Sequence record: PP496998.1
Source of the DNA: Escherichia phage EC.W14-3
Direction: 5' to 3' (one strand)
Length of the DNA: 64,000 nucleotides
In this document: positions 6-62,572 of the stretch, piece by piece
Numbering within the stretch: position 1 is the stretch's first letter
How the letters are laid out: each line of letters opens with the position of its first letter
Notes under the pieces: generated by a model
Seen by the model: the letters and a program-made list of their open reading frames with translations, nothing else
What the model was told of the DNA's origin: nothing
The model's database searches: none
Position numbers and translations under genes: made by a program

Positions 6-227
6 TTGAACCATCTCCACGCTGGGTGGGCAGACGCAGGGTTTAATAGCAGTAAGCTGACATTTGAATTCCATAACGTAACCAAGCATCATAGCTTACG
101 AGTTCGTGCTGGTATGCGTGTTGGTCAGATGGTTATGTTTGAGCACTCTCATGCAGGGGAGCACTCCTATGCAGTGAAGGGTCGTTATAATAACTCTGAA
201 GGTGTAGTTGCATCTAAAGGTGTGTAA
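6..227 (+). CDS. hypothetical protein (frame open to window start; may begin upstream)
   Basis: ORF track 73 aa; C-terminus loosely resembles the three downstream 65-69 aa paralogs. Confidence 0.3.
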   Translation: MNHLHAGWADAGFNSSKLTFEFHNVTKHHSLRVRAGMRVGQMVMFEHSHAGEHSYAVKGRYNNSEGVVASKGV

Positions 228-44407: not shown

Positions 44408-45949
44408 TTAGTAACTCTGATTCCATCTGCTTACGTTTGCCTCATACAGAGAAGCACTTCCGTAGCTAACGTCATGCTTAGAGCGACCACGATGTGTAAC
44501 AGAGCACGCTGAATAGCGCATTGCATCCATTAAGTCATCATGTTCTTTAATAATCTTACCAACCTTACGGTGATATCTAGCTTTCTCTTCGAATAGCTTA
44601 GCATTAGCGGCTGTGTTAAAGATTTTAAAGCGTCCACTCATCATTCTTTCTCGGATATCTGTGATTCCCGGTTCTACAAAGAAGTTCTTTTTACCATCCA
44701 TTCCAATTTTGTTGTAGAAGGTCTCACTCTGTACGTTAACTCCTGCATTCTTATAGAATTGAGCAACAGATGAGCCACTACCTTTCTCAATATTGTCCGC
44801 ATCGTGCGGTAGGATGACAGGAATCCACTGACCACGACCATTAATAGCTGGAGCATGATACACTGGAGTAAAGCCACCTTCTTTATATGAGTCGTAAACA
44901 TAGATAGTATCCGTGTTTGCATCGTAAGCTGTCCAAACAGCAGCAGTTGGGTGATCAATACCAATATCAATTGCACAGACACGTTTCCACGTATCAGGAA
45001 TTTCGAATGGTTCACATTTAATTGTGTCATCCGATACATCATAAATCAAACCACTTCCTAACAATGGCATACCTTTCGAACGCATCTCTAACTGCCACGC
45101 TGGAATACCTTCAGTCATATCTTTTATATCTTGGTCAGTGATATGTCCACCTAGGTCTGCATGAGCATCCCACCAAGAAGCGTTCTGGAAATATAGAGAA
45201 CCTGTGTTCTCATCCCCTTCGCCTTTCATAAATTTATCTACCAGTTCAGTTAAACCGTTCTCTGGTGTAGCTGTAATTGTAACTAGACCTTTAGTTGTGA
45301 GTGTACGTGTGACGCACTGTGCGAATATAGCCATAGACTCGTATGGATCTTCTTCGTCTAACCAAATGTAGTCAACTGTTGCACCCATCAATGTGTGTTC
45401 ACCCTGTTGGGTTGAACGGAATTCTAATGTACTTAAACCGTCAAACTCCCCTCTCTCATTTTGATGTTTGATTTGTACGATTTGAAGTTTGTTACCATCT
45501 CGTTCTATCGTGTCAATGACGATAGCATCACGAGGAATGACACCTGTCCCCAATAAGTTTGTATCCTTTCCGATAGGTGTACCAAACAATTCCTTTTGCA
45601 ATACTTTCCTTGTGGAATCCCCTGTAATACCAACTGCCCATGCTAAGATAGGTCTTTTAAATTTATATCCTGTCCACCAAGTTGGGTAGCGACCTGTGAC
45701 ATGACAAGCAAACTCGTATGCCTCGCTATAAGATTTACCAACACGGTTCGCTGCACACAAGAATCTAAAGCGATGCTTCAATCCTGCTGCATAAAATTTC
45801 TTTTGGAAGTCATACGCCTTGAAAGACAAAATCTTATTATACTTCCTCCATTGGTCACGCTCTTTCAACATATTCAATAGTGCTTTCTTTTCCTCTACAC
45901 TAAGATTGTTACCAGTTAGAGCTTCATAAATTTGTTTATCTAATGACAT
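44408..45949 (-). CDS. terminase large subunit
   Basis: Walker A-like CAANRVGKSYSEA near N-terminus, 513 aa, position before portal; RBS GGAGG. Confidence 0.8.
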   Translation of the reverse strand: MSLDKQIYEALTGNNLSVEEKKALLNMLKERDQWRKYNKILSFKAYDFQKKFYAAGLKHRFRFLCAANRVGKSYSEAYEFACHVTGRYPTWWTGYKFKRPILAWAVGITGDSTRKVLQKELFGTPIGKDTNLLGTGVIPRDAIVIDTIERDGNKLQIVQIKHQNERGEFDGLSTLEFRSTQQGEHTLMGATVDYIWLDEEDPYESMAIFAQCVTRTLTTKGLVTITATPENGLTELVDKFMKGEGDENTGSLYFQNASWWDAHADLGGHITDQDIKDMTEGIPAWQLEMRSKGMPLLGSGLIYDVSDDTIKCEPFEIPDTWKRVCAIDIGIDHPTAAVWTAYDANTDTIYVYDSYKEGGFTPVYHAPAINGRGQWIPVILPHDADNIEKGSGSSVAQFYKNAGVNVQSETFYNKIGMDGKKNFFVEPGITDIRERMMSGRFKIFNTAANAKLFEEKARYHRKVGKIIKEHDDLMDAMRYSACSVTHRGRSKHDVSYGSASLYEANVSRWNQSY

Positions 45950-48592: not shown

Positions 48593-48621
48593 TTGACAGG
48601 TTTTTCCTTTATTATATAGTT
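48593..48621 (+). promoter_or_regulatory. sigma-70-type promoter
   Basis: TTGACA, 16-nt spacer, TATAGT; about 45 nt upstream of ATG 48665. Confidence 0.55.
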
Positions 48622-49561: not shown

Positions 49562-49825
49562 ATGGCTATCAAAGAAATTAAGTTATCTAATGGCTTTTCT
49601 TGTTTTGTTGGTGGAAGCTCTATCCTGTTTAATACACTTGATGGTCAGATAACGTTACCTGTTATCACTTTTTGCAGGATGGAATATCAGCCTCTTAAAG
49701 ATTGGCTAGCCTTTGCTGATTTTGAAATTACCCGTGAAGACTTCAAATCAATCTATATTGACGGTGATTTATCACTGGCTAACCTGCTCAATCATGGACT
49801 AATTAAGGGTGATATTAATGGGTAA
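49562..49825 (+). CDS. hypothetical protein
   Basis: 87 aa; RBS GGGAG. Confidence 0.45.
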   Translation: MAIKEIKLSNGFSCFVGGSSILFNTLDGQITLPVITFCRMEYQPLKDWLAFADFEITREDFKSIYIDGDLSLANLLNHGLIKGDING

Positions 49826-50176: not shown

Positions 50177-50542
50177 ATGGGTATTATCAAATTTGTAGTA
50201 AAAGTATTCGTGGGCTTCTTCCTTGTCGTTCTCCTGCTGGGTGTGCTCCTATCGGCTATGGGTAGCGTTAAGGCTGCAACATTCTCCCCTGCTACGGTGG
50301 AAGGTTTACAGTGCACCTATTTGATAGAAAATTATGATACCGGTAAAAAGTCACCTAAAGTTATTATTTTGCATGTAAATGATTTCGATCATGTGCAATC
50401 AGATAGTAAAACTATTCTACTGGTAAATGAAACTACTGGTAAACAAATCACGGTCGATCACTTGATGCGCTCATCGTTAACGCTCTTTGATGAGTCCATG
50501 AATGAAATGGCATCCGGTAATGGTCAATGTGTAAATCCATAG
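50177..50542 (+). CDS. membrane protein (N-terminal TM/signal anchor)
   Basis: MGIIKFVVKVFVGFFLVVLLLGVLL; RBS AGGTGA 8 nt before ATG. Confidence 0.5.
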   Translation: MGIIKFVVKVFVGFFLVVLLLGVLLSAMGSVKAATFSPATVEGLQCTYLIENYDTGKKSPKVIILHVNDFDHVQSDSKTILLVNETTGKQITVDHLMRSSLTLFDESMNEMASGNGQCVNP

Positions 50543-50619
50543 GCTTAATCTTTCTCCTGTATTGTGCCGTAGTCATGCCTATGGTCATAATTTATCTGAT
50601 GCTTTAAATCCTTCCTGTA

Positions 50620-50646
50620 AGCCTCCTAGTGAGGCTTTTCTCTTTT
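50620..50646 (+). terminator. rho-independent terminator
   Basis: agcctc-ctagt-gaggct hairpin followed by TTTTCTCTTTT. Confidence 0.65.
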
Positions 50647-50846
50647 ATGAGGTGATTGTATGCCTTACTCCCTTTTAGCTCGTTGTGGTGCGTTACAGGC
50701 CGCTTATTATTGCTTTACAAGCCGTTTTCTATGATGTATCACGCGCCCCCGCTCTTTTACCTCCTGATTTCTTCCGGTGTCCTACCGACAATAAAATAAA
50801 TTCCTTTATAAAACAGTGAGATGAAAAATAATTTGAAAAAAGGGTA

Positions 50847-50874
50847 TTGACATGATTTTCCTTTATAGTAATAT
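50847..50874 (+). promoter_or_regulatory. strong sigma-70 promoter P1 with A-rich UP-like element
   Basis: aaaaaagggtaTTGACA, 16-nt spacer, TAATAT. Confidence 0.65.
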
Positions 50875-51003
50875 GAATCCCGTAGTAAGCAGTAAGTAAC
50901 AACAAGTAGTAAAAACTCCTCGATAGGTGATTAGCATCACGGTAAAAGGCTTCAACGGGGAGCGGTAGGAATACCGACAGTAAGACGCACAATGAAGGTG
51001 CTA

Positions 51004-51016
51004 CGCTCTTTAAAAA
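51004..51016 (+). promoter_or_regulatory. BoxA-like antitermination motif (copy a)
   Basis: CGCTCTTTAAAAA vs rrn BoxA TGCTCTTTAACAA and lambda nutL CGCTCTTAAAAA. Confidence 0.5.
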
Positions 51017-51052
51017 TCAGGCTAGAAAGTGAAAATATTCTTAAAAAGAGTA

Positions 51053-51081
51053 TTGACACCGAAAACAGCCTGATTCATAAT
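51053..51081 (+). promoter_or_regulatory. strong sigma-70 promoter P2
   Basis: aaaaagagtaTTGACA, 17-nt spacer, CATAAT. Confidence 0.7.
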
Positions 51082-51113
51082 AAGCACTCAGTCAGCGATG
51101 ACTTAAAAAATCC

Positions 51114-51126
51114 CGCTCTTTAAAAA
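51114..51126 (+). promoter_or_regulatory. BoxA-like antitermination motif (copy b)
   Basis: CGCTCTTTAAAAA about 35 nt downstream of P2 -10. Confidence 0.5.
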
Positions 51127-51200
51127 CTTATCATCTTGCCTTTTCGCATAGATTCACGCGAGATAAGGGAAAAGAATAAAAGAAGATGATAAAAAAGAGA

Positions 51201-51229
51201 TTGACAAGCTAACACGATGTGTTAAGCTG
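51201..51229 (+). promoter_or_regulatory. sigma-70 promoter P3 (weaker -10)
   Basis: aaaaaagagaTTGACA, 16-17-nt spacer, TAAGCT. Confidence 0.45.
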
Positions 51230-51241
51230 TAAATGCTACAC

Positions 51242-51254
51242 CGCTCTTTAACAA
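51242..51254 (+). promoter_or_regulatory. BoxA-like antitermination motif (copy c, best match)
   Basis: CGCTCTTTAACAA = rrn BoxA with first T replaced by C; followed by hairpin TTAAGC-atcacc-GCTTAA. Confidence 0.55.
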
Positions 51255-51355
51255 TATGAATCATAAGTTAAGCATCACCGCTTAATCTTCAATCAAATAA
51301 AGCTGATTGATATATCCTCCCAATAGCGGGAACGACGAAAAAGATTAAAAAGTGG

Positions 51356-51384
51356 TTGACAGCGAAAACAACATGATTCATAAT
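51356..51384 (+). promoter_or_regulatory. strong sigma-70 promoter P4
   Basis: aaaaagtggTTGACA, 17-nt spacer, CATAAT. Confidence 0.7.
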
Positions 51385-51474
51385 GAGCACTCACTAAGCA
51401 AATCACCGCTTCAGTGAAAAGCGTAACAACGGCTAACAGTTGCATAGTGTGAGAAAGCACACTGATAGATTTAC

Positions 51475-51487
51475 CGCTCTTTAATAA
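51475..51487 (+). promoter_or_regulatory. BoxA-like antitermination motif (copy d)
   Basis: CGCTCTTTAATAA about 90 nt downstream of P4. Confidence 0.5.
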
Positions 51488-51489
51488 TT

Positions 51490-52305
51490 TAAACATTCTC
51501 CTATATCGGTTGAATATGTTAGATGATAATAACCATCGGATAACATACCAGATAAAACGGTGTAAGATTCTCTAAACTATCAGAGAAAACAATCTTATAA
51601 TCCCTTGCTGGAAACGTCACCACTGATAAACGGATTCATTGAGTGTACGCAAAGATTTAAGCTAATCGCCCACGGTTAAGGGTAGCGGCGGTCATCGCTA
51701 ACAAGGCGCTACAGTGAAAGAAGTTAATCAGGGTAGGCAAGCCCGAAGAATTAACGCTCAATTGAGAGCGGCGGGGAGTGGTTAAAAAGTGGCAAATTGC
51801 TATTTAACAATAAGGTTTAGTGTGAACGTTTACGATGTGAATGATTTGAGGCCACTATTGATGGCGTACATAGTCAGTTTATGTAGTAAACTTGCCGAAA
51901 GATATAAAACGTCAGAACATTAGACGGTCAATGACTCTTTCACAATAGCATCCCGTTGTGGGCGATGGCTAGTGATTGAGAGTTGATACAAAAGGATAGG
52001 CGAGAGCGAAAGCAAAGTAGACGATATTGCCGACGGTTACAATAAACGTAACTAATTAGAGTCGGACGCACTGCCTTATTGTGATGATTGATCATCGCTA
52101 TCAGGTCGGCTTCGTTTATAGCGACTAATTAAAGATACCAGATGAAACATCACGGATAAGGGGGCGGCAAGGTTAACTCCTGATAAGACCGCCCCGCTTA
52201 CCTATAACTACTTAACAACGAGTGGTTATAGTTAAGTTAATAGTGACTTAAACAAGCTCATAGAGAGCGGGGCAATAGCGCCCTTACAAGTGAAAGGTGA
52301 ATATC
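51490..52305 (+). other. ORF-free transcribed leader / candidate structured non-coding RNA
   Basis: about 0.8 kb with stops in all frames (longest ORF about 20 codons), repeated CACGGnTAAGGG and GAGCGGCGGGGAG blocks, hairpin agggggcgg...ccgcccc. Confidence 0.4.
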
Positions 52306-53205: not shown

Positions 53206-53229
53206 GTAAGACAATTTAAATAAACATAA

Positions 53230-54861: not shown

Positions 54862-55251
54862 ATGTTGACATTGACTATTTATTATGAGGCAGGGAATCAG
54901 CCAACCGCATGTAAGGCTTTAGTTGCGGATACCGTGATAAATAGAATGGCCCAACGAAAACTGACCGCTGAACAGGTGATAAGACAAAAGAACCAGTTTG
55001 AGTGGATTCCGGTACTATTAAAACAGGAGAAACCTTATAAACGTTATGTAAAGCTGATTCGTGATAAAAATCCGATGACTAAGCAAGCCATTGGAGAAAG
55101 CGAGCGGCTGGCTAAACGTGCCCTTAAGAAGAATTATGTTCCGCTGTACAGTGGGACTTACTTTCAGAGTAAGAGCGAAGGGGTGCCAAAATGGTATGCC
55201 AATCCTATGTATTGTGGTGATTTAGTATTTGATAATAGCTCTAGGGAATAA
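54862..55251 (+). CDS. SleB-like cell wall hydrolase (Hydrolase_2 family), tentative
   Basis: IYYEAGNQP..CKALVADTVINR resembles SleB catalytic block YAEARGE...AVA.VV.NR. Confidence 0.45.
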   Translation: MLTLTIYYEAGNQPTACKALVADTVINRMAQRKLTAEQVIRQKNQFEWIPVLLKQEKPYKRYVKLIRDKNPMTKQAIGESERLAKRALKKNYVPLYSGTYFQSKSEGVPKWYANPMYCGDLVFDNSSRE

Positions 55252-55450
55252 TCACTAGTGCCAGATTTGACAAACTAAATTCCTTTATAAACCAACCACT
55301 TAGTAAATTTATTGAAAAAGATGGTAGTATTCTGGGACTATGGGTAATGCTCTGTATATAGACCCTTTGAAAATTTCTTAGAAAATAAGTTTACTAAATA
55401 TAACTTACTTAAATAATATTACTTTTAATCTCTGATAAAGGGTAAATAAT

Positions 55451-55747
55451 ATGACTTTAGAAGTATATAAATTCCTTTTTGTAAGCTGTTTAACTATCAG
55501 CGTTCTAGGATTTATTGTTCTAAGAAACAAAGCAGCAAGCTGGGAAAGAATGTATAAATCCCTAGTCCGAGTGGATGAGATGTATAATGAGAAGGTTAAA
55601 GTAACACTCAACGATCTTATTATGCAAGTTGAGGACAGAAACAAGCGTCTTCAGAACCTCAATCACGAAGTGTTACGCCTTGCTCGTGCTAATGAAGACT
55701 TGCGAATAGCTATTGCTAAGCAGCAGGAGATTAACAGTGATAATTGA
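55451..55747 (+). CDS. membrane-anchored coiled-coil protein
   Basis: N-terminal TM FLFVSCLTISVLGFIVL then heptad-like charged region. Confidence 0.45.
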   Translation: MTLEVYKFLFVSCLTISVLGFIVLRNKAASWERMYKSLVRVDEMYNEKVKVTLNDLIMQVEDRNKRLQNLNHEVLRLARANEDLRIAIAKQQEINSDN

Positions 55748-55748
55748 T

Positions 55749-55973
55749 ATGAACAACGCCCCAAAGGTTTTAACTCTTGGGGATTTAGAATCAGGTGATG
55801 TATTCCAGTTCCCTCTGGATGGGGAGAATTACTATATGTTATCTAGTCAGAAGTTTGGGACAACAGACAAGAGAAGTTATATCAATCTTTCCTGTGGCGT
55901 TATTGCAACGGATGAAGGTAATACAGTCATCAAGAAGGTCAGCAATGCTCGGCTTACCAATAAGGTGGATTAA
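55749..55973 (+). CDS. small protein, paralog family C
   Basis: LTLGDLESGDVF...YYM...NLSCG motif set; internal ATG of track ORF 55713-55973. Confidence 0.45.
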   Translation: MNNAPKVLTLGDLESGDVFQFPLDGENYYMLSSQKFGTTDKRSYINLSCGVIATDEGNTVIKKVSNARLTNKVD

Positions 55974-55975
55974 CA

Positions 55976-56212
55976 GTGAAAGTTAATATTAAATCCGATC
56001 GTACAATGCTTCGCTTAAACAACATGAAGCCGGGCGTTCTATTTGAGCGTAAAGAATCCCTTTACATTAGAACCGACACATTGTACGCAGACAATTATGT
56101 CAACTGTGTTGATGTGGTAACTGGAAAGCTCATTCCTTTTAAACGGGATGAAGTCTGCCAAGTACGCAGCGATCTCCACATAACTAACATAGAGGCTAAA
56201 GATGAAGATTGA
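55976..56212 (+). CDS. small protein, paralog family C
   Basis: GTG start; MKPGVLF...LYIRTD...NCVDVVTG. Confidence 0.4.
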   Translation: MKVNIKSDRTMLRLNNMKPGVLFERKESLYIRTDTLYADNYVNCVDVVTGKLIPFKRDEVCQVRSDLHITNIEAKDED

Positions 56213-56459
56213 TTTGAAGGTAAATGAACCATCTTTGTGTGTTGGTGATCTCAAACTTGGAGATGTATTCCAAATCAGGGAAACACGAGCAGATTTCTAC
56301 ATGGTTGTTCAGCTATTTACCTCACAGATTGAAGAGACCAAGCCTTCTGATGGGGGTTGTGTCGTCCTTAGTCTGACAAATAAGCAAGTCCTTAAGCTTA
56401 GCTCGAAAAGCAAGGTTGTTCTTCTTCATGATGTTGTTATTACTAACAAGGGCAAGTAG
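56202..56459 (+). CDS. small protein, paralog family C
   Basis: VGDLKLGDVFQ...FYMV...GGCVVLSLTN. Confidence 0.45.
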   Translation: MKIDLKVNEPSLCVGDLKLGDVFQIRETRADFYMVVQLFTSQIEETKPSDGGCVVLSLTNKQVLKLSSKSKVVLLHDVVITNKGK

Positions 56460-56678
56460 ATGGAAATTAAAGTAGTTGATTATCCTAAATATGCAAATGC
56501 AGAAGATGTTAAAGGTGGTGATGTTTTCTCTTACGACAGACGTTTCTGGCTGATGTTAGAAGATAAAACTCCCGATGGTTTATGTAAGGCCGCCAATCTG
56601 AACAGCGGTTCTGTTGAAGTCTTCGGTCTATCAACCACTGTTATGCCACGCCCTGATCTGTGTTTATCCCAAAAGTAA
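56460..56678 (+). CDS. small protein, paralog family C
   Basis: VKGGDVFS...FWLML...CKAANLNSG. Confidence 0.45.
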   Translation: MEIKVVDYPKYANAEDVKGGDVFSYDRRFWLMLEDKTPDGLCKAANLNSGSVEVFGLSTTVMPRPDLCLSQK

Positions 56679-56684
56679 CATCGA

Positions 56685-56800
56685 CTTATAGCCCTTGTGT
56701 TTATCAGAGGGCTATGTGAGGGTGTTCCTCATTAACTTATTAATTCAGGCATATGCCACACCGCTAGGGAGAGCTTGCTCGAACATCCGGTGTTAGACTA
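56685..56800 (+). repeat. conserved non-coding element, copy 1 (hairpin plus GCTAGGGAGAG block)
   Basis: TATAGCCCT...AGGGCTATGTGAG hairpin, GCTAGGGAGAG, AACATCCG shared with 61827-61950. Confidence 0.5.
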
Positions 56801-57036
56801 AAACCTGTTCAATTTCGGTAGACTTTCCACTACGTAGGGGTACGTATTGGTTTGGGATTCAGGAGATCTCCTAGGGGTAGGAGGTCTTCACCAGTTGGGA
56901 TAAGAGATAGCTCTAGAACCTGAACTCTTAGGCAGAGAGGGTCGGCAATGAGTACGAGGTCAGAATTAGCCTCCTGACTAGGGCTATCCCTTATATCAAC
57001 TGGCAATAATGCCTCCACTAATAAAGAGAGAACGTT

Positions 57037-57177
57037 ATGAAGAAGTCAACCAAGAGTATGAACCGTCCTGAGCGTATGGATGCAGTAGCAAATGGTGCAC
57101 TGAAGATCGAGTCTGCCATGCTGCGTCTGATGGGTAACATCCGTAAGCGTCAAGGTGGTTGGGTTTACAATAACTGA
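57037..57177 (+). CDS. small basic protein (46 aa), probably highly expressed
   Basis: host-optimal codons; MKKSTKSMNRPER...; not in track (short). Confidence 0.35.
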   Translation: MKKSTKSMNRPERMDAVANGALKIESAMLRLMGNIRKRQGGWVYNN

Positions 57178-57299
57178 TTTAATAAAAGGCTGCCTAGAAA
57201 TAGGTGGCCTTTGTTGTTTTAATTAAGGGTCAACTCTTACTTAAACTAACAACGGGTGTATGGTATTGACAGGCATCGGCACGGAACTTGTTACCAACA

Positions 57300-57370
57300 A
57301 GGTTGGCGAATCAAGACCTCTGTGAAGCTCCGAAGAAATCAAGGCAGGTTCGACTCCTGCTCCCCGACCA
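57300..57370 (+). pseudogene. tRNA-like 3' fragment (T-arm plus acceptor-like end)
   Basis: GCAGG-TTCGACT-CCTGC T-arm then TCCCCGA-CCA; no matching 5' acceptor strand found. Confidence 0.25.
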
Positions 57371-57390
57371 AATCAGCAAGAGGTGCTTAT

Positions 57391-57744
57391 ATGAGAAGCA
57401 TGGTTAAAGATTGGGTAACTAAATCAGGTCTTCGTGCTGTGATTATGCACATGAACGACTCCCACTTTTGTGGATATGTAGAGCTACCAGACAGCTTAAA
57501 ACATAAAAACTTCACCGGATATAACGGGAATGAAGAAGTTTGTTATGTAAGTGTTCATGGTGGTGTCACATGGCAAGATACCCTTGAAGAGATGGATGGT
57601 TTAGATACAATCGGATTTGATTGTGCCCATGCAGGTGATAAGACACGGTTCAACCCTAACGGGGTTCCAAGAACAGAAACGTTCTGCATCAACGAATGCG
57701 AACAAATGGCTGAACAACTAAGAGATCTCGAATCAAATGTCTAA
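57391..57744 (+). CDS. hypothetical protein
   Basis: internal ATG after GAGG RBS; track N-terminal extension would span the tRNA-like element. Confidence 0.45.
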   Translation: MRSMVKDWVTKSGLRAVIMHMNDSHFCGYVELPDSLKHKNFTGYNGNEEVCYVSVHGGVTWQDTLEEMDGLDTIGFDCAHAGDKTRFNPNGVPRTETFCINECEQMAEQLRDLESNV

Positions 57745-57913
57745 GCAAACAATCAAACATACGCAAGCTGGTTACTCTTATATCAACTCTCCTTGTTGTG
57801 GTGCTCGTGTGAATCTGGTTAAGGAAGAGGTTCGTATCGTTCAGCGTGGCGCTACTGTTGTTCGTTCATGCTGTGTCTGTGGTAATGACATTTTTATCAA
57901 AGGTAAAGTATGA
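57737..57913 (+). CDS. small Cys-rich protein (58 aa)
   Basis: SPCCGARV...SCCVCGND; overlapping starts both sides; not in track. Confidence 0.35.
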   Translation: MSKQTIKHTQAGYSYINSPCCGARVNLVKEEVRIVQRGATVVRSCCVCGNDIFIKGKV

Positions 57914-58161
57914 AAAACTTCCAAGCTGCACCAATAACTAAAGTGATCGAAGTTGACGGTGTAATGATGACTGTTCCTCTGAACACTCGTTACATTGCAA
58001 TTGACAAGATGGGCTATGTATGGGCTTGGAAGATCAAGCCTAGTTATAACGCACTGTTTGATGAGTTTGTTTGTACTGGTACTTACAGTCCTACATTCTT
58101 GGGTTTATTTGGAGAGTTTGATGGTAAGCATAAAATCATCACTCTCCCTGCTTGTGCTTGA
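57910..58161 (+). CDS. hypothetical protein
   Basis: 83 aa ORF, ATGA overlap with upstream stop. Confidence 0.45.
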   Translation: MKNFQAAPITKVIEVDGVMMTVPLNTRYIAIDKMGYVWAWKIKPSYNALFDEFVCTGTYSPTFLGLFGEFDGKHKIITLPACA

Positions 58162-58168
58162 GGTTATT

Positions 58169-58333
58169 ATGTTCAAGTGGTTTAAACGTTTCTTCCATCT
58201 CCATGATTGGGAGACAATAAAAGAAATTCGTTTACACATATATAATGAGATTGGTCAAATAGAAGACACAGGTACTCGTTATATACTTCGATGTAAAACA
58301 TGTGGTCATATCACCAAGCGAGATATGATCTAA
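58169..58333 (+). CDS. small zinc-ribbon protein (54 aa)
   Basis: RCKTCGH; RBS GAGG; C-terminal part of track ORF 57995-58333. Confidence 0.4.
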   Translation: MFKWFKRFFHLHDWETIKEIRLHIYNEIGQIEDTGTRYILRCKTCGHITKRDMI

Positions 58334-58341
58334 ATAATTCT

Positions 58342-58417
58342 GCGCTCTTAGCTCAATGGATAGAGCAGTAGCCTTCTAAGCTATTGGTTACAGGTTCGAG
58401 TCCTGTAGGGCGCACCA
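58342..58417 (+). tRNA. tRNA-Arg (anticodon UCU)
   Basis: 76 nt cloverleaf: 7-bp acceptor GCGCTCT/AGGGCGC, D-arm GCTC-AATGGATA-GAGC, anticodon loop CTTCTAA, T-arm ACAGG-TTCGAGT-CCTGT, encoded CCA. Confidence 0.9.
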
Positions 58418-58423
58418 CATTTA

Positions 58424-58538
58424 GGGCTAGTATGGGTGCGGCACCAGAGTTAGTGTATCCCTGTTGAGGCAAGTGCTTTTATAACAGTGGGAATTACTTT
58501 CTTAGTGAGCTTCTGGTTCGATTCCAGATAGTCCACCA
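58424..58538 (+). other. tRNA-like element with consensus T-arm, non-canonical overall
   Basis: TCTGG-TTCGATT-CCAGA T-arm plus TAGTCCACCA end; 5' acceptor partner imperfect; about 105 nt. Confidence 0.25.
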
Positions 58539-58557
58539 AATCTAATAGGAGGTAATT

Positions 58558-58857
58558 ATGAGTTGGGGTGGTGTAATATCCTTAATCTGTATCTTCCTTG
58601 TCTGTATAGCCCTTACAGGCTGCGTACAGAGTCGTCCTGATGGATGGTGTGCAGTAGCAGTGGAAGGTGTTTGTGTTTCTCGCTGGCATAAAGGTAAGAA
58701 GGTTCCTTCTGGTGAAATTGATATGCGCTGGAACGGAGCAACCTGCTCTAATGCTAACCCTTCTATCAACGAAGAGAAATCTACACCGGATAATGTTGTG
58801 ATTGATACAGCGTTGTGGTGTGGTGGCTCTGTAACAACAACCGGTAAGGAGTGGTAA
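58558..58857 (+). CDS. lipoprotein (possible superinfection-exclusion / receptor-masking protein)
   Basis: AGGAGG RBS; signal peptide with canonical lipobox LTGC (MSWGGVISLICIFLVCIALTGC); Cys-rich mature region. Confidence 0.55.
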   Translation: MSWGGVISLICIFLVCIALTGCVQSRPDGWCAVAVEGVCVSRWHKGKKVPSGEIDMRWNGATCSNANPSINEEKSTPDNVVIDTALWCGGSVTTTGKEW

Positions 58858-58858
58858 T

Positions 58859-59107
58859 ATGACAGCTCATTATTGGAATACAAAGAAGCTTCTTGAGGAG
58901 ATGGCTGGGGGTAGTAGAGTACAGCTAATCTCTATGCTTCGAATGGATGCTCGCTCTTTACGCTTTCAAGTGAAGATTGGTAACTTCAGCGATGGTCTTT
59001 ATTATACCTTGAAGGAAAGAATTAAGAAAACTCACTTCATCATGTACGGAATCAAACCGAGAACGTACGTTAACTACATGTATTGGGATACATGCTACGA
59101 TAGTTGA
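58859..59107 (+). CDS. hypothetical protein
   Basis: 82 aa ORF. Confidence 0.45.
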   Translation: MTAHYWNTKKLLEEMAGGSRVQLISMLRMDARSLRFQVKIGNFSDGLYYTLKERIKKTHFIMYGIKPRTYVNYMYWDTCYDS

Positions 59108-59114
59108 GGCTATT

Positions 59115-59336
59115 ATGAAATTAGATTCTAAACAATCACTTAAAACTGTTGAACTATCCACCCTTCCAAATGGAAGTATTTTTGGTCATGATAAACACTT
59201 CTGGATTAAAACAGACTACTTGAACGATGGGTATATCACCTGTGTCAATCTTTGGAATGGCTCAGTGGATGGCTACCGCCCTAGTGCAAAAGTAGTCCCT
59301 CAGCCTGATGCAAAAGCTATAGGTTTGGTCTACTAA
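59115..59336 (+). CDS. small protein, paralog family C
   Basis: LPNGSIFG...FWIKTD...CVNLWNG. Confidence 0.45.
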   Translation: MKLDSKQSLKTVELSTLPNGSIFGHDKHFWIKTDYLNDGYITCVNLWNGSVDGYRPSAKVVPQPDAKAIGLVY

Positions 59337-59345
59337 GGAGTTCAT

Positions 59346-59519
59346 ATGAGCTGTTATGGTGGAGGTGAAGTTTATGATGACGATGATATGGAATCTAATG
59401 GGGAATGCCCTGATTGCGGGTGTGAGACGTTTGATGGTGTATCAGTATATCCTGCCTGTAGTTACTCACCAGTGATCTGTAAAACATGTGGTGATCAGCC
59501 ATGTGACCAATCTTGTTAA
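59346..59519 (+). CDS. small Cys-rich protein (57 aa)
   Basis: AGGAG RBS; CPDCGC...CKTCGDQPCDQSC; not in track. Confidence 0.35.
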   Translation: MSCYGGGEVYDDDDMESNGECPDCGCETFDGVSVYPACSYSPVICKTCGDQPCDQSC

Positions 59520-59528
59520 GAGGTTAAT

Positions 59529-59786
59529 ATGGACGGAGAAATGGTTTCATATATAGCCATGACCTACTTGGTAGGTTGGTGGGTTGCAGTGTTGGTGGTG
59601 AAGTGGTGCTTCAAGAGAGGGAAGTTTAAAACTTTCCTACATACTCCTTGGGGGAACCCTGACGAAACTGCAATGTGGGTTGTGATCTTCTTCTGGCCTG
59701 TTATCTTATTATTCTTTATCATCTTCCCAATCCTACTACTATTTGACACTGTATTATGTAGGCTTACTAATTTTATAGTAAAGTAA
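59529..59786 (+). CDS. small membrane protein (2 TM)
   Basis: two hydrophobic segments (VGWWVAVLVV; VVIFFWPVILLFFIIFPILLLF). Confidence 0.5.
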   Translation: MDGEMVSYIAMTYLVGWWVAVLVVKWCFKRGKFKTFLHTPWGNPDETAMWVVIFFWPVILLFFIIFPILLLFDTVLCRLTNFIVK

Positions 59787-59790
59787 TATC

Positions 59791-60060
59791 GTGAAGGACT
59801 CTTACGAGAGTCCTTTGAGATAGGACTTCAGATCTCCTATCAAACTAACATTCATGTAACTAGCCCATAAGGGCGTTACCCTTTAATAACCCAGCCCACT
59901 AAGGGGGCGGGAGTTTAGTGCTGGATGAGCATAACGCTTATTCCTACAAAGGCAACCGATTGTTAGATCTTACATGCAATATTAATTAATAGGATAAGGG
60001 AGGATTCGTCCCCTCCCCCTATTTTATTGAATCTTTATCTAAGCAAGTCTTATATAAACA
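59791..60060 (+). other. hairpin-rich intergenic region
   Basis: perfect 8-bp hairpin aggactct-TACG-agagtcct, adjacent gatagga...tcctatc hairpin, further GC-rich stems; no ORF. Confidence 0.35.
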
Positions 60061-60076
60061 TTTAATCGGAGGGTAT

Positions 60077-60298
60077 ATGACAAAATGTGAAACACTTATC
60101 AAACATAGTCCGTATCCTTTCAGAAGGGTAACTCTTAGTCAGATAGAGGAAGAAGCCAAAAAGCACTACACTAATTGGGAGGATATGAACTTCCTTCAGT
60201 GGAATAGCGCTCATGGAGATCTGTCTTCAGACATGATAAGGCATTCGCATTATCTGATAATTGATGGTGTGTTAGTTAAAAGTCGACATGGGTGGTAA
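60077..60298 (+). CDS. hypothetical protein
   Basis: 73 aa; RBS GGAGGG. Confidence 0.4.
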   Translation: MTKCETLIKHSPYPFRRVTLSQIEEEAKKHYTNWEDMNFLQWNSAHGDLSSDMIRHSHYLIIDGVLVKSRHGW

Positions 60299-60611
60299 AA
60301 TGAAAGCTCGAAGAACTATATGGACTCCGATGCAGATTGAAAACCTTCGGAGACTAATCAAAGAGTACTCTGTCCAAGAGGTTGCTCAGATTATGAATGT
60401 AACGGAGAATGCAGTTAATACAGCTTGCACTAAGTTCGGTATATCAAGAGCTGTAATCCGAGTTAAGTGGTCTAAAGAAGAAGATCAGTTCCTTATCCGT
60501 AATGCTGGGTTCATGTCTATTCAGAGAATGGCTGACATGCTCGGTAGAAGTTATGCTGCTGTACAGAACAGGGCATGTATGCACCTTAACATTAGCCTCA
60601 AACTTAAATAG
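60288..60611 (+). CDS. tandem helix-turn-helix protein (putative transcriptional regulator)
   Basis: two HTH-like repeats YSVQEVAQIMNVTENAVNTA and MSIQRMADMLGRSYAAVQNRA. Confidence 0.5.
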   Translation: MGGKMKARRTIWTPMQIENLRRLIKEYSVQEVAQIMNVTENAVNTACTKFGISRAVIRVKWSKEEDQFLIRNAGFMSIQRMADMLGRSYAAVQNRACMHLNISLKLK

Positions 60612-60619
60612 GAATCAAT

Positions 60620-60865
60620 ATGAAGATCATCCCAAAGAAAAAGGATAATACGGTACGATTGGAAACGATCATTCCCGGAAACCCCTTTGTGGTACAGCAC
60701 GGAAGTGTCTCTCCTCAATATTATATGAGGGTTGAAAATGCTTCTGGTAATATCCGTATAGCCAGTGGCTGGGTTCCTGTGGTAAACCTTTCCACAGGTG
60801 TACTATCTGTTAAAGGTCTTGATGATCAGGTAGAAATGATTCGTATGTCAGTGGTTCAGGAGTAA
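60620..60865 (+). CDS. small protein, paralog family C
   Basis: IIPGNPFV...YYMRV...VVNLSTG. Confidence 0.45.
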   Translation: MKIIPKKKDNTVRLETIIPGNPFVVQHGSVSPQYYMRVENASGNIRIASGWVPVVNLSTGVLSVKGLDDQVEMIRMSVVQE

Positions 60866-60867
60866 TT

Positions 60868-61116
60868 ATGGGCACTATTCATATTAAAGTTAAGAGCAAA
60901 GAGGAAACAGTCCTCCGTGTTAAAGATCTAAATATGTCAGATGTGTTCACTCTCCAAGAGTGCCATCTTCAAAAGATTTATATGCTTACAGCTAAGAGCA
61001 GGGGCTGTCAACCTGCTGGAGCTGTTAACTTAGGCACTGGAGAACTGCGTGTCATCTCTGGTGATATGGTTGTTGGTGAGAAGTTTAGTAAGGCTGAAAT
61101 TATCTTAACTCCATAG
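60868..61116 (+). CDS. small protein, paralog family C
   Basis: LNMSDVFT...IYML...GAVNLGTG. Confidence 0.45.
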   Translation: MGTIHIKVKSKEETVLRVKDLNMSDVFTLQECHLQKIYMLTAKSRGCQPAGAVNLGTGELRVISGDMVVGEKFSKAEIILTP

Positions 61117-61124
61117 GAAAACAA

Positions 61125-61241
61125 ATGAGACGTAAAGCATATTCTTATGACGATATGATTAACCAGAAAGGCTTTGGTCAACGGCAGCCTGACGGTTCAA
61201 TTATCTGGTTCGTAAACGGACAGAAAAAGGTAGCTAAATAA
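61125..61241 (+). CDS. possible 38-aa peptide
   Basis: short ORF between paralog genes; weak evidence. Confidence 0.2.
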   Translation: MRRKAYSYDDMINQKGFGQRQPDGSIIWFVNGQKKVAK

Positions 61242-61257
61242 GCCCTCTTCTCTCCCC

Positions 61258-61283
61258 CTTTTAGTACTATGACGCCTCTCTGT
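61258..61283 (+). promoter_or_regulatory. conserved intergenic motif TTTTAGTACTATGACGCCTCTCTGT (copy 2)
   Basis: copy of 54644-54670 element; followed by hairpin GCGTAGGGAATTCCCTCTACGC. Confidence 0.35.
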
Positions 61284-61347
61284 GGGCGGCCCAATTTGCG
61301 TAGGGAATTCCCTCTACGCAGCCATGACTTTTTAAGGAATTTCCCCT

Positions 61348-61581
61348 ATGTCTAAAGTAAGCGCAATCGATGCAATCCGTCAACCGTTCCAGTTCCAATC
61401 CAAATCAACCCAAACCTTCAGTGAGCCTAAGCAAATTCGCTTGGGTGGCACAGAGAAGACTGTGTTTGATCTGGCTAAAAACAAGAGCGTTACCGTAGTT
61501 GATGGTGGCACTCTGGTTAACGTTTCCCATCGTATCCGCACTGGCAAAACTGCCAAAGATCGTGCTAAGAAAGGTGAGTGA
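61348..61581 (+). CDS. small basic protein, probably highly expressed
   Basis: 77 aa; host-optimal codons; RBS AAGGAA. Confidence 0.5.
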   Translation: MSKVSAIDAIRQPFQFQSKSTQTFSEPKQIRLGGTEKTVFDLAKNKSVTVVDGGTLVNVSHRIRTGKTAKDRAKKGE

Positions 61582-61823
61582 TGAAAATAGGGAAACCAGC
61601 TAAGGATGTTCTAGCGAAGATTGGTGATATCTCTATTGGGGAAGTTTTCTCAGCTGAGCACTTTTCAAGTTACTACATGAGAATCCCTGACACTAAAGTT
61701 GAGGGTTGCATCATCCCTGCCAACGCAGTTAACCTGAACACAGGACACCTGTCTGCATTCAAACCTGATTCACAGGTTACTGAAATCAAAGATGCCTACC
61801 TCGCCTTTGGTGGGGATAAGTAG
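61578..61823 (+). CDS. small protein, paralog family C
   Basis: ISIGEVFS...YYMRI...NAVNLNTG. Confidence 0.45.
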   Translation: MMKIGKPAKDVLAKIGDISIGEVFSAEHFSSYYMRIPDTKVEGCIIPANAVNLNTGHLSAFKPDSQVTEIKDAYLAFGGDK

Positions 61824-61826
61824 AGT

Positions 61827-61950
61827 AACATCTATAGCCTTCTTCTGAGGGCTATGTGAGTTATTCTGACTCAACTAACCTAATCTTAATATATTTCCCG
61901 TATGGGGCCGATGCTAGGGAGAGGAGTGTTCCTCAAACATCCGTCGGATA
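61827..61950 (+). repeat. conserved non-coding element, copy 2
   Basis: ATAGCC...GAGGGCTATGTGAG hairpin, GCTAGGGAGAG and AACATCCG blocks shared with 56685-56800. Confidence 0.5.
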
Positions 61951-62054
61951 GATATTTTAAGAGCAGGTTATCCACAGATATTGGGTAATATCTTTTTGGA
62001 TTTAAAGCTTGGCTCTTTTCGGAGAGTCCTTTTTTAAATTCAATGAGAGGAAAT

Positions 62055-62207
62055 ATGTCTAAATTAGATTTAAAACTGCTAGCAGCAGCGGTAGTGATTT
62101 GTGCACTAGCACTGGTAACGCAGAGAACATCTGGATTTATTCAGTGTTTCTTTTCTGGGCAATCCACTTATCAGTGGGTTATTGACGAGTGTAAACAACA
62201 GGAGTAA
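62055..62207 (+). CDS. small hydrophobic peptide (50 aa)
   Basis: RBS GAGAGG; LKLLAAAVVICALALV hydrophobic stretch; not in track. Confidence 0.35.
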   Translation: MSKLDLKLLAAAVVICALALVTQRTSGFIQCFFSGQSTYQWVIDECKQQE

Positions 62208-62209
62208 GT

Positions 62210-62572
62210 ATGAATACACGTCCCATTAAGGGCAACGTTAATATTGAAACTCTGAACAAGGTTGCATCAAATCTCGGTGGAATGTCCAACGATGAGCTTG
62301 AGCAAGAACTTGCTTGGATTGCAAATGGTATCAAAGTTGCTAAAGGTAAGATTGCTCGTGAGCAAAGCAACATGAAAGCTCACAAGTATATCATCCGTCG
62401 TGCAAACATGTTACCAGAGCGGGTTGTACATCTTGCCCGTAAAAACTACTCAGAAGCAAAGAAAGCTCTGGAAGAAGCTACTTTCCAGAAGCACCAATTT
62501 ATGAACAACTATCGAAACTTCCGAGATATTTTTTATATCCGTAAGTCGATTGAGTTGATTAAAAACCAATAG
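62210..62572 (+). CDS. hypothetical protein
   Basis: 120 aa; RBS GGAG. Confidence 0.5.
   Translation: MNTRPIKGNVNIETLNKVASNLGGMSNDELEQELAWIANGIKVAKGKIAREQSNMKAHKYIIRRANMLPERVVHLARKNYSEAKKALEEATFQKHQFMNNYRNFRDIFYIRKSIELIKNQ

Follow-up and report, generated by a model that had tools for sequence, protein, structure and literature searches.

What are the eight short open reading frames (ORFs) that lie between positions 55,737 and 61,823 of a 64,000-nucleotide stretch of Escherichia phage DNA (EC.W14-3, PP496998.1; this whole stretch is the window in what follows), are they related to one another, and what might they do for the phage that carries them? A first-pass annotation, made from the letters alone, had read them as a family of small paralogous proteins. 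In a megablast search, positions 55400-62300 match Escherichia phage EC.W8-1 (PQ030848.1; 76,408 bp; Gordonclarkvirinae, Kuravirus) at 100%, and 146 further related records also match; window positions equal positions in PQ030848.1 minus 7,244. In that record all eight genes are labelled hypothetical protein. Kuravirus phages, which are abundant and infect a broad range of hosts, are therapy candidates, and about two thirds of their genes are 'hypothetical'. We find, with high confidence, that the eight copies constitute one real homologous family and that the genome holds exactly eight of them.

Homology of the eight copies

Shared ancestry was assessed in three ways. In a leave-one-out analysis, a hidden Markov model (HMM) built from seven copies was run against the eighth, held-out copy together with the 472 other ORFs of the window and 1000 shuffles of the held-out copy; the held-out copy ranked first in every case (8/8), with E-values between 3.4e-5 and 2.1e-11, and the best decoy reached E 0.015 or weaker. 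A second profile was built solely from 120 distant relatives, none of which is at least 40% identical over at least 50 residues to any copy in the window. Searched against all ORFs of the 76.4-kb genome, this profile retrieved exactly the eight copies (E 1.7e-12 to 8.3e-18), with the next ORF at E 0.65. Finally, when the profiles of the eight ortholog groups were aligned to each other with hhalign, seven edges with probabilities of 90.6-96.8% joined all eight, and many other pairs of ortholog groups were individually weak. Taken together, the leave-one-out results, the profile independent of the window and the HMM-HMM alignments confirm the family that had been proposed. All-versus-all BLASTP E-values came from a database of eight sequences, and we relied on the leave-one-out and independent-profile tests instead. 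The profile searches found no extra copies, either inside the window or elsewhere in the genome.

Two other ORFs were considered as members and rejected. The ORF at 45204-45371 lies on the wrong strand for the region and its E-values (0.015-0.18) are sub-threshold. A 61-amino acid (aa) ORF outside the window, at 2135-2320 of PQ030848.1, is the ortholog of phiEco32 gp78 and scores E 0.03-0.65. This gp78 ortholog, which comes nearest to the family profile among the sub-threshold ORFs, adjoins the ortholog of gp79, an RNA polymerase (RNAP) factor, and has a D-L-D-A-D-M-F motif; it could be a highly diverged relative or could match by chance.

Gene layout and translation starts

All eight ORFs (8/8) were located where they had been placed, and all are on the + strand. 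They are listed below with the E-values from the leave-one-out model (LOO), from the distant-only profile (DP) and, where given, from the assigned PHROG; SD denotes a Shine-Dalgarno sequence.

Copy 1: 55737..55973, + strand, 78 aa, GTG start; PHROG 9955; GenBank coding sequence XDJ04183; LOO 3.4e-5, DP 1.2e-14, phrog_9955 4.6e-27.
Copy 2: 55976..56212, + strand, 78 aa, GTG start, SD AAGGTGG; PHROG 16423, with cross-matches to PHROGs 6570, 7832 and 7431; LOO 9.4e-8, DP 1.1e-15, phrog_16423 1.4e-48.
Copy 3: 56202..56459, + strand, 85 aa, 11-nucleotide overlap with copy 2, longer loop between strands 3 and 4; PHROG 9955; LOO 1.3e-6, DP 1.4e-13, phrog_9955 1.6e-36.
Copy 4: 56460..56678, + strand, 72 aa, start abutting the stop codon of copy 3; PHROG 6570; LOO 1.5e-8, DP 2.4e-15, phrog_6570 2.2e-32.
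Copy 5: 59115..59336, + strand, 73 aa, singleton; PHROG 6570; LOO 2.1e-8, DP 4.1e-17.
Copy 6: 60620..60865, + strand, 81 aa, directly 3' of a helix-turn-helix (HTH) gene at 60300-60611; PHROG 7431; LOO 1.4e-8, DP 3.3e-14, phrog_7431 2.3e-30.
Copy 7: 60868..61116, + strand, 82 aa; PHROG 12612; LOO 1.2e-7, DP 1.7e-12, phrog_12612 2.3e-39.
Copy 8: 61581..61823, + strand, 80 aa from ATG 61581, a variable slot and the copy modelled by AlphaFold2; PHROG 12612; LOO 2.1e-11, DP 8.3e-18.

Judged from SD spacing, the GenBank annotation and the N-termini of orthologs, six of the starts first proposed were kept and two were revised. Copy 1 likely begins at GTG 55737 rather than ATG 55749: an AGGAG SD lies 7 nucleotides upstream, GenBank uses the same start and orthologs begin MIIDMNNAP. 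Copy 8 likely begins at ATG 61581 rather than GTG 61578. The arrangement also differs from the three tandem arrays of the first-pass annotation, the real layout being 4 + 1 + 2 + 1, that is, a run, a singleton, a pair and a further singleton, with copy 8 parted from the copy 6-7 pair by two unrelated small ORFs. The tight packing was described correctly. Genes overlap by 11 nucleotides at 55737 and 56202, TAG and ATG abut at 56459/56460, gaps of 2 nucleotides occur at 55973/55976 and 60865/60868, and stop and start are merged in TGATG at 61579-61583. An SD-like motif precedes every copy, and the overlap or abutment of several starts with the stop before them suggests translational coupling.

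One neighbour is itself unusual. The 77-aa ORF at 61348-61581 (+), whose stop overlaps the ATG of copy 8 in that TGATG, has no Pfam match and is 99-100% identical across Kuravirus and 93% identical in Suseptimavirus, far above the surrounding genes.

An old family with a reshuffled repertoire

The copies had been explained through tandem amplification followed by rapid divergence. This history is not supported: the nearest relatives of the copies lie outside this set, the closest pairs often lie in different arrays (4 with 5, 2 with 5, 1 with 3) and the ratio of nonsynonymous to synonymous divergence (dN/dS) is ordinary. For each copy, between 1 and 29 cluster representatives from other clusters outscore its best paralog within the genome. 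In pairwise Nei-Gojobori comparisons of EC.W8-1 with five Kuravirus genomes, the median dN/dS is 0.12 for the family (maximum 0.5), 0.11 for other small early genes and 0.07 for larger early genes; the family is thus on a par with its neighbours and under ordinary purifying selection. The median dS, on the other hand, is 0.55 for the family versus 0.26 for other small early genes, and since the excess divergence sits in dS, it points to the exchange of old alleles.

The distribution of the copies among related genomes agrees with an exchange of this kind. Identity reaches at least 85% in 35% of the family's gene-by-genome cells versus 63% for other early genes of up to 100 aa (Fisher p 0.004, a value that is indicative only, as the cells are not phylogenetically independent). 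Within a slot, identities are bimodal: copy 4 shows 99% identity in phiEco32 and NJ01 against 49-64% in Ptacy1479 and SR02, and the values for copy 5 fall at either 84-93% or 42-58%, depending on the genome. Copy number varies as well among eight relatives, from 3 in LAMP, of the small-genome Kuravirus clade, through 4 in Suseptimavirus SU7 and Bas86, 6 in a Grimontviridae Salmonella phage and 8 in SR02, to 9 in phiEco32 and 10 in NJ01 and Ptacy1479; phiEco32, NJ01 and Ptacy1479 carry subfamilies not found in the window. In tblastn searches copy 8 has close orthologs in 17 of 39 records. These observations support a repertoire that turns over faster than the neighbouring genes. We conclude with high confidence that the multigene family is old and that recombination reshuffles its repertoire, and that it did not arise in a recent tandem burst accompanied by faster protein evolution.

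The same data bear on the simplest objection, namely that these are chance or decaying ORFs whose shared motifs are coincidental. The proteins are indeed short, carry no known domain and were not detected in SU10 proteomics. Against this stand the profile statistics, the strong purifying selection, the SD motifs and coupled starts, the conservation in more than 70 phage genomes, the thousands of metagenomic relatives and a confident fold prediction. The leave-one-out analysis, the distant-only profile and the dN/dS values effectively refute this objection, and we give it almost no credence.

Conserved signature and predicted fold

The family signature can be written MKI...L..G-D/E-V-F...Y-Y-M...V-N-L-x-T-G...V...A.L, with strong conservation of the N-terminal MKI and of G21, F24, L53, G56 and V67. 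Within the predicted scaffold, MKI corresponds to an N-terminal strand, G-D/E-V-F to a turn, Y-Y-M to an aromatic strand and V-N-L-x-T-G to a hairpin, followed by a late valine. The cysteine of the third motif noticed at the outset is conserved in only 35% of sequences (alanine in 38%). The strongest conservation falls on glycine turns and hydrophobic core residues, and most other positions vary between copies; the family alignment has no conserved polar cluster such as enzymatic activity or a shared ligand site would require. Isoelectric points (pI) among the eight copies span 4.9-9.2. The family overall is mildly acidic (median pI 5.1, charge -2.5), with no conserved basic patch.

AlphaFold2, run on copy 8 with an alignment of 28 sequences, returned five beta-strands with a predicted local distance difference test score (pLDDT) of 78.6 and a predicted template modelling score (pTM) of 0.65. 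For orthologs of other copies (e.g. copies 3-6), independent BFVD models align with this one in Foldseek at template modelling (TM) scores of 0.6-0.75, and the model of a natural two-domain fusion contains two confident barrels. The models support a common fold, and we read this predicted fold, which the first-pass annotation had not recognised, as probably a generic SH3-like small beta-barrel. The SH3-like class is generic and assigns no function by itself.

Size and spread of the superfamily

The 133 proteins recovered by a word-indexed search are Kuravirus-type orthologs of seven of the eight copies with at least 52% identity; among the 120 matches listed there was no ortholog of copy 6. 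An indexed homolog search with a broad alignment gave just 27 matches. An exhaustive profile search of 1.84 billion representatives recovered 1,868 clusters at E<=1e-3. Almost all of the best 150 clusters are proteins of 66-90 aa aligned from residue 1, every sequence inspected has an MKI-like start, and about a dozen are natural two-domain fusions. In tblastn searches copy 5 is the most widely conserved (71 phage records), and Salmonella phage PKM.Hi.22.6 (Grimontviridae) has six family copies, including an ortholog of copy 5 with 70% identity, which indicates exchange of family genes across phage families. When the consensus or a T4-like member served as the query, tblastn found almost nothing in isolate phages, its sensitivity being limited for divergent proteins of 75 aa.

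T4-like contigs, phi29-like contigs and a Vibrio phage also contain distant members, which neighbour Rnl2 and Y10B in the T4-like contigs and a protein-primed DNA polymerase in the phi29-like ones. Two copies in tandem are found on each of two contigs (L004, L021), three in tandem on another (L028) and four within 9.6 kb on a fourth (L022); multi-copy, tandem and fused forms therefore recur in unrelated phages. Two very long metagenomic proteins also came up. One of 2,223 aa (P0210) has many family-like modules (L-x-x-G-D-x-F ... Y-x-V ...) along its length and no Pfam match, and the small barrel can evidently form the repeating element of proteins of great length. The other (P0121, 1315 aa, eight 'stretches') was rejected as a probably spurious match in which cadherin-like repeats accumulate score.

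A gapped DNA pattern, specific but narrow, gave two matches in 596 Gb of bacterial genomes and three in IMG/VR, counts that are no measure of absence from bacteria. The two bacterial matches are a mis-binned Kuravirus fragment on an 8-kb contig and a lone copy on a 4.4-kb contig of a metagenome-assembled genome (MAG). The 8-kb contig, CALKAR010000070.1 ('Peptococcaceae MAG'), carries five family copies with amidoligase genes downstream, and is almost certainly Kuravirus DNA mis-binned into a bacterial MAG. The superfamily appears to be ancient and essentially restricted to phages.

The eight proteins match PHROGs 9955, 16423, 6570, 7431 and 12612 essentially end to end (E 4.6e-27 to 1.4e-48), and 79 of 88 distant members match phrog_6570. 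The eight proteins also cross-match one another's PHROGs collinearly. PHROGs divides the superfamily into at least eight separate groups of 'unknown function' (also 7832, 8365 and 34455). Neither Pfam, NCBIfam, PADLOC nor the PDB sequence set gave a match, the Pfam families for KOW, Tudor, FeoA and bacterial SH3 domains matched none of the eight copies (E<=1) and none of 88 diverse members (E<=0.01), and no description of the family was found in the literature, including a machine-learning preprint on anti-defence proteins (10.1101/2024.06.14.598830). We hold with high confidence that the superfamily joins at least eight PHROGs under one predicted fold and is far larger than the sample from isolate phages.

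Probable early transcription

The early-region placement of these genes, proposed from the outset, is supported by synteny and by the promoters upstream. The early gene class of phiEco32 has been defined experimentally (PMC8948821, PMC4281155), and the orthologs of the family fall inside it by synteny. In SU10, three sigma70 promoters lie between genes 120 and 121, and the same has been described in phiEco32 (PMC4281155). A consensus scan of the window (10-11 of 12 matches) found a corresponding set in a 1.75-kb non-coding spacer (50542-52297):

50847-50874, + strand: near-consensus sigma70-type promoter.
51053-51081, + strand: near-consensus sigma70-type promoter.
51356-51384, + strand: near-consensus sigma70-type promoter.

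A fourth near-consensus sigma70 promoter is at 48593 (+). The promoter layout matches that of SU10 and phiEco32, and the spacer promoters probably serve as early promoters for the + strand genes, those of the family among them. By synteny, we infer that the family genes would be expressed early. Terminator-like hairpins stand at 53228, 54787, 57185 and 59998, between and after gene groups.

Several other features of this region were observed. A tRNA-Arg (anticodon TCT) at 58342-58417 (+), found by ARAGORN and Rfam, is missing from the features of PQ030848.1 and is annotated at the same place in relatives. Upstream of the first array, and far from the late and lysis genes, 54862-55251 (+) encodes a SleB-type cell-wall hydrolase domain (Pfam Hydrolase_2, E 1.7e-7). 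GenBank names a 'DNA helicase' (55451-55747, 98 aa), a 'terminase' (50177-50542, 121 aa) and a 'DNA polymerase B region' (49562-49825, 87 aa); these three names look like spurious annotation transfers, the 98-aa protein having no Pfam match.

A proposed function and its alternatives

A fixed mini-scaffold that presumably leaves its surfaces free to vary, is retained in several diverged versions, occurs at times as tandem fusions and is probably expressed early would suit a panel of binding modules, and such a panel is what we propose. Eight single-domain SH3-like barrels of about 75 aa would lie in an early transcription unit read by the host RNAP from sigma70 promoters, and would be translationally coupled to their neighbours. 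Each copy would be a small binding module with a partner of its own, the scaffold being fixed and the other positions and the charge variable, so that a phage making the panel at the start of infection could bind and modulate a set of host macromolecules. Purifying selection retains each copy, and gain, loss and replacement by old divergent alleles reshuffle the panel between related phages. We put forward tentatively, at a little under even chances, that the copies act as infection begins, binding host macromolecules and modulating them for host takeover, counter-defence or both; the lack of any enzyme-like or known-domain signal in the database searches supports this proposal.

Several observations weigh against it. 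No copy is listed in the SU10 proteome, a virion-enriched sample. Gene-wide positive selection, often seen in classic arms-race genes, was not found by dN/dS. Two of the terminator-like hairpins (53228, 54787) stand between the promoters and the arrays and another (57185) follows the first array, so that read-through or antitermination would be needed for the promoters to reach the arrays. In BASEL assays, Suseptimavirus (4 copies) and Kuravirus (8-10 copies) are both resistant to restriction-modification (RM) systems (PMC11990801), and Fun/Z, the only system in the tests to restrict Kuravirus, acts on it in spite of its larger repertoire. Copy number thus does not track the measured phenotypes.

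A narrower version of the proposal, and indeed a special case of it, would make the copies dedicated anti-defence proteins, each directed at one immune system, recently amplified and evolving fast under positive selection. The early location, the high turnover in presence and alleles relative to neighbouring genes, and one distant member that shares a contig with Acb2/Tad1-like and Lar-like genes all fit this version, as does the broad resistance of Gordonclarkvirinae to defences, RM systems included, without known inhibitors (PMC11990801). The copies are ancient and show no recent amplification, though, and their dN/dS of 0.12 (0.5 at most) equals that of their neighbours and gives no sign of positive selection. 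Pfam, NCBIfam and the PDB sequences give no match to known inhibitors (Acr, Ocr/ArdA, Tad, Acb, Gad), PADLOC gives none either, and 4-copy phages resist RM as well as those with 8-10. We therefore consider this version unlikely.

The main alternative is that the proteins bind nucleic acid or the transcription or translation machinery and tune phage or host gene expression, in the manner of KOW, Sm, Tudor and CarD barrels. Their structural neighbours include KOW, CarD and UvrD-like domains; copies 6 and 7 follow directly 3' of the double-HTH gene at 60300-60611 (+), which resembles sigma70 region 4; and in unrelated contigs copies follow a phage sigma factor (L021, 3623-4288) or a MazE/AbrB-like gene (L030, 5686-5967; L030/L031). 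Yet such a regulator is the neighbour in only 3 of about 12 sampled contexts, and the link to sigma and HTH genes is best taken as a lead, reflecting either a weak connection with transcription factors or chance. The mild acidity of the family, its lack of a conserved basic patch, the missing KOW, Sm and Tudor signatures, the absence of any Pfam match and the lack of relationship to gp79, the RNAP factor known from Kuravirus, also count against this alternative, to which we assign roughly one chance in five.

A bolder extension can be imagined, in which the superfamily is a pan-phage 'mini-binder' scaffold that has been multiplied, fused and swapped into panels of inhibitors against host hubs and immune proteins, with the Kuravirus panel adding to the defence resistance of Gordonclarkvirinae. 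We regard this extension as a long shot. If the copies proved to bind host factors specifically, they would supply new inhibitors and might account for the resistance of these phages to defences; otherwise the cleaner annotation remains as a result. One domain family, ready for Pfam-type curation, now takes in the eight unknowns, about 1,900 metagenomic clusters and eight or more PHROGs that lacked annotation. What we see with high confidence is an uncurated phage superfamily, much larger than expected and with a generic predicted fold, that is of moderate interest and good tractability: the proteins have 72-85 aa, phages with 3 and with 10 copies exist in nature, and BASEL isolates grow on K-12.

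Comparison with known systems

The predicted fold may be likened to a range of SH3-like barrels, namely the C-domain of ribosomal protein L2, the KOW domains of EF-P/eIF5A, Tudor/PWWP, FeoA, VapX, CarD and the RNAP-interaction domains of UvrD. For a VapX-type antitoxin, neither an adjacent VapD toxin gene nor similarity to VapX was found.

Foldseek adds phage proteins from BFVD, namely N4 gp21, PaP3 ORF65, a protein of Salmonella phage 7-11 and proteins of Erwinia, Proteus, Dickeya and Providencia phages, all of them uncharacterized, so that no function can be transferred from them to the family. Those of N4, PaP3, 7-11 and the Erwinia, Proteus and Vibrio phages, early proteins of virulent phages, are of the same size and their BFVD models reach TM scores of 0.6-0.8 at a Foldseek probability of 1.0. 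Their phages carry 1-4 copies per sampled locus versus 8-10 in Kuravirus.

A further comparison is with gp79 of phiEco32, an early transcription factor of 82 aa that binds RNAP (PMC8948821; PMC12276001). It is not homologous to the family: its EC.W8-1 ortholog (1890-2138 of the record, after an ATP-grasp gene) lies at a different locus and is missed by all family profiles. It resembles the eight copies, however, in belonging to the same phage lineage, in its place in the early region and in its similar size, and exemplifies small early proteins that have a host machine as their binding target.

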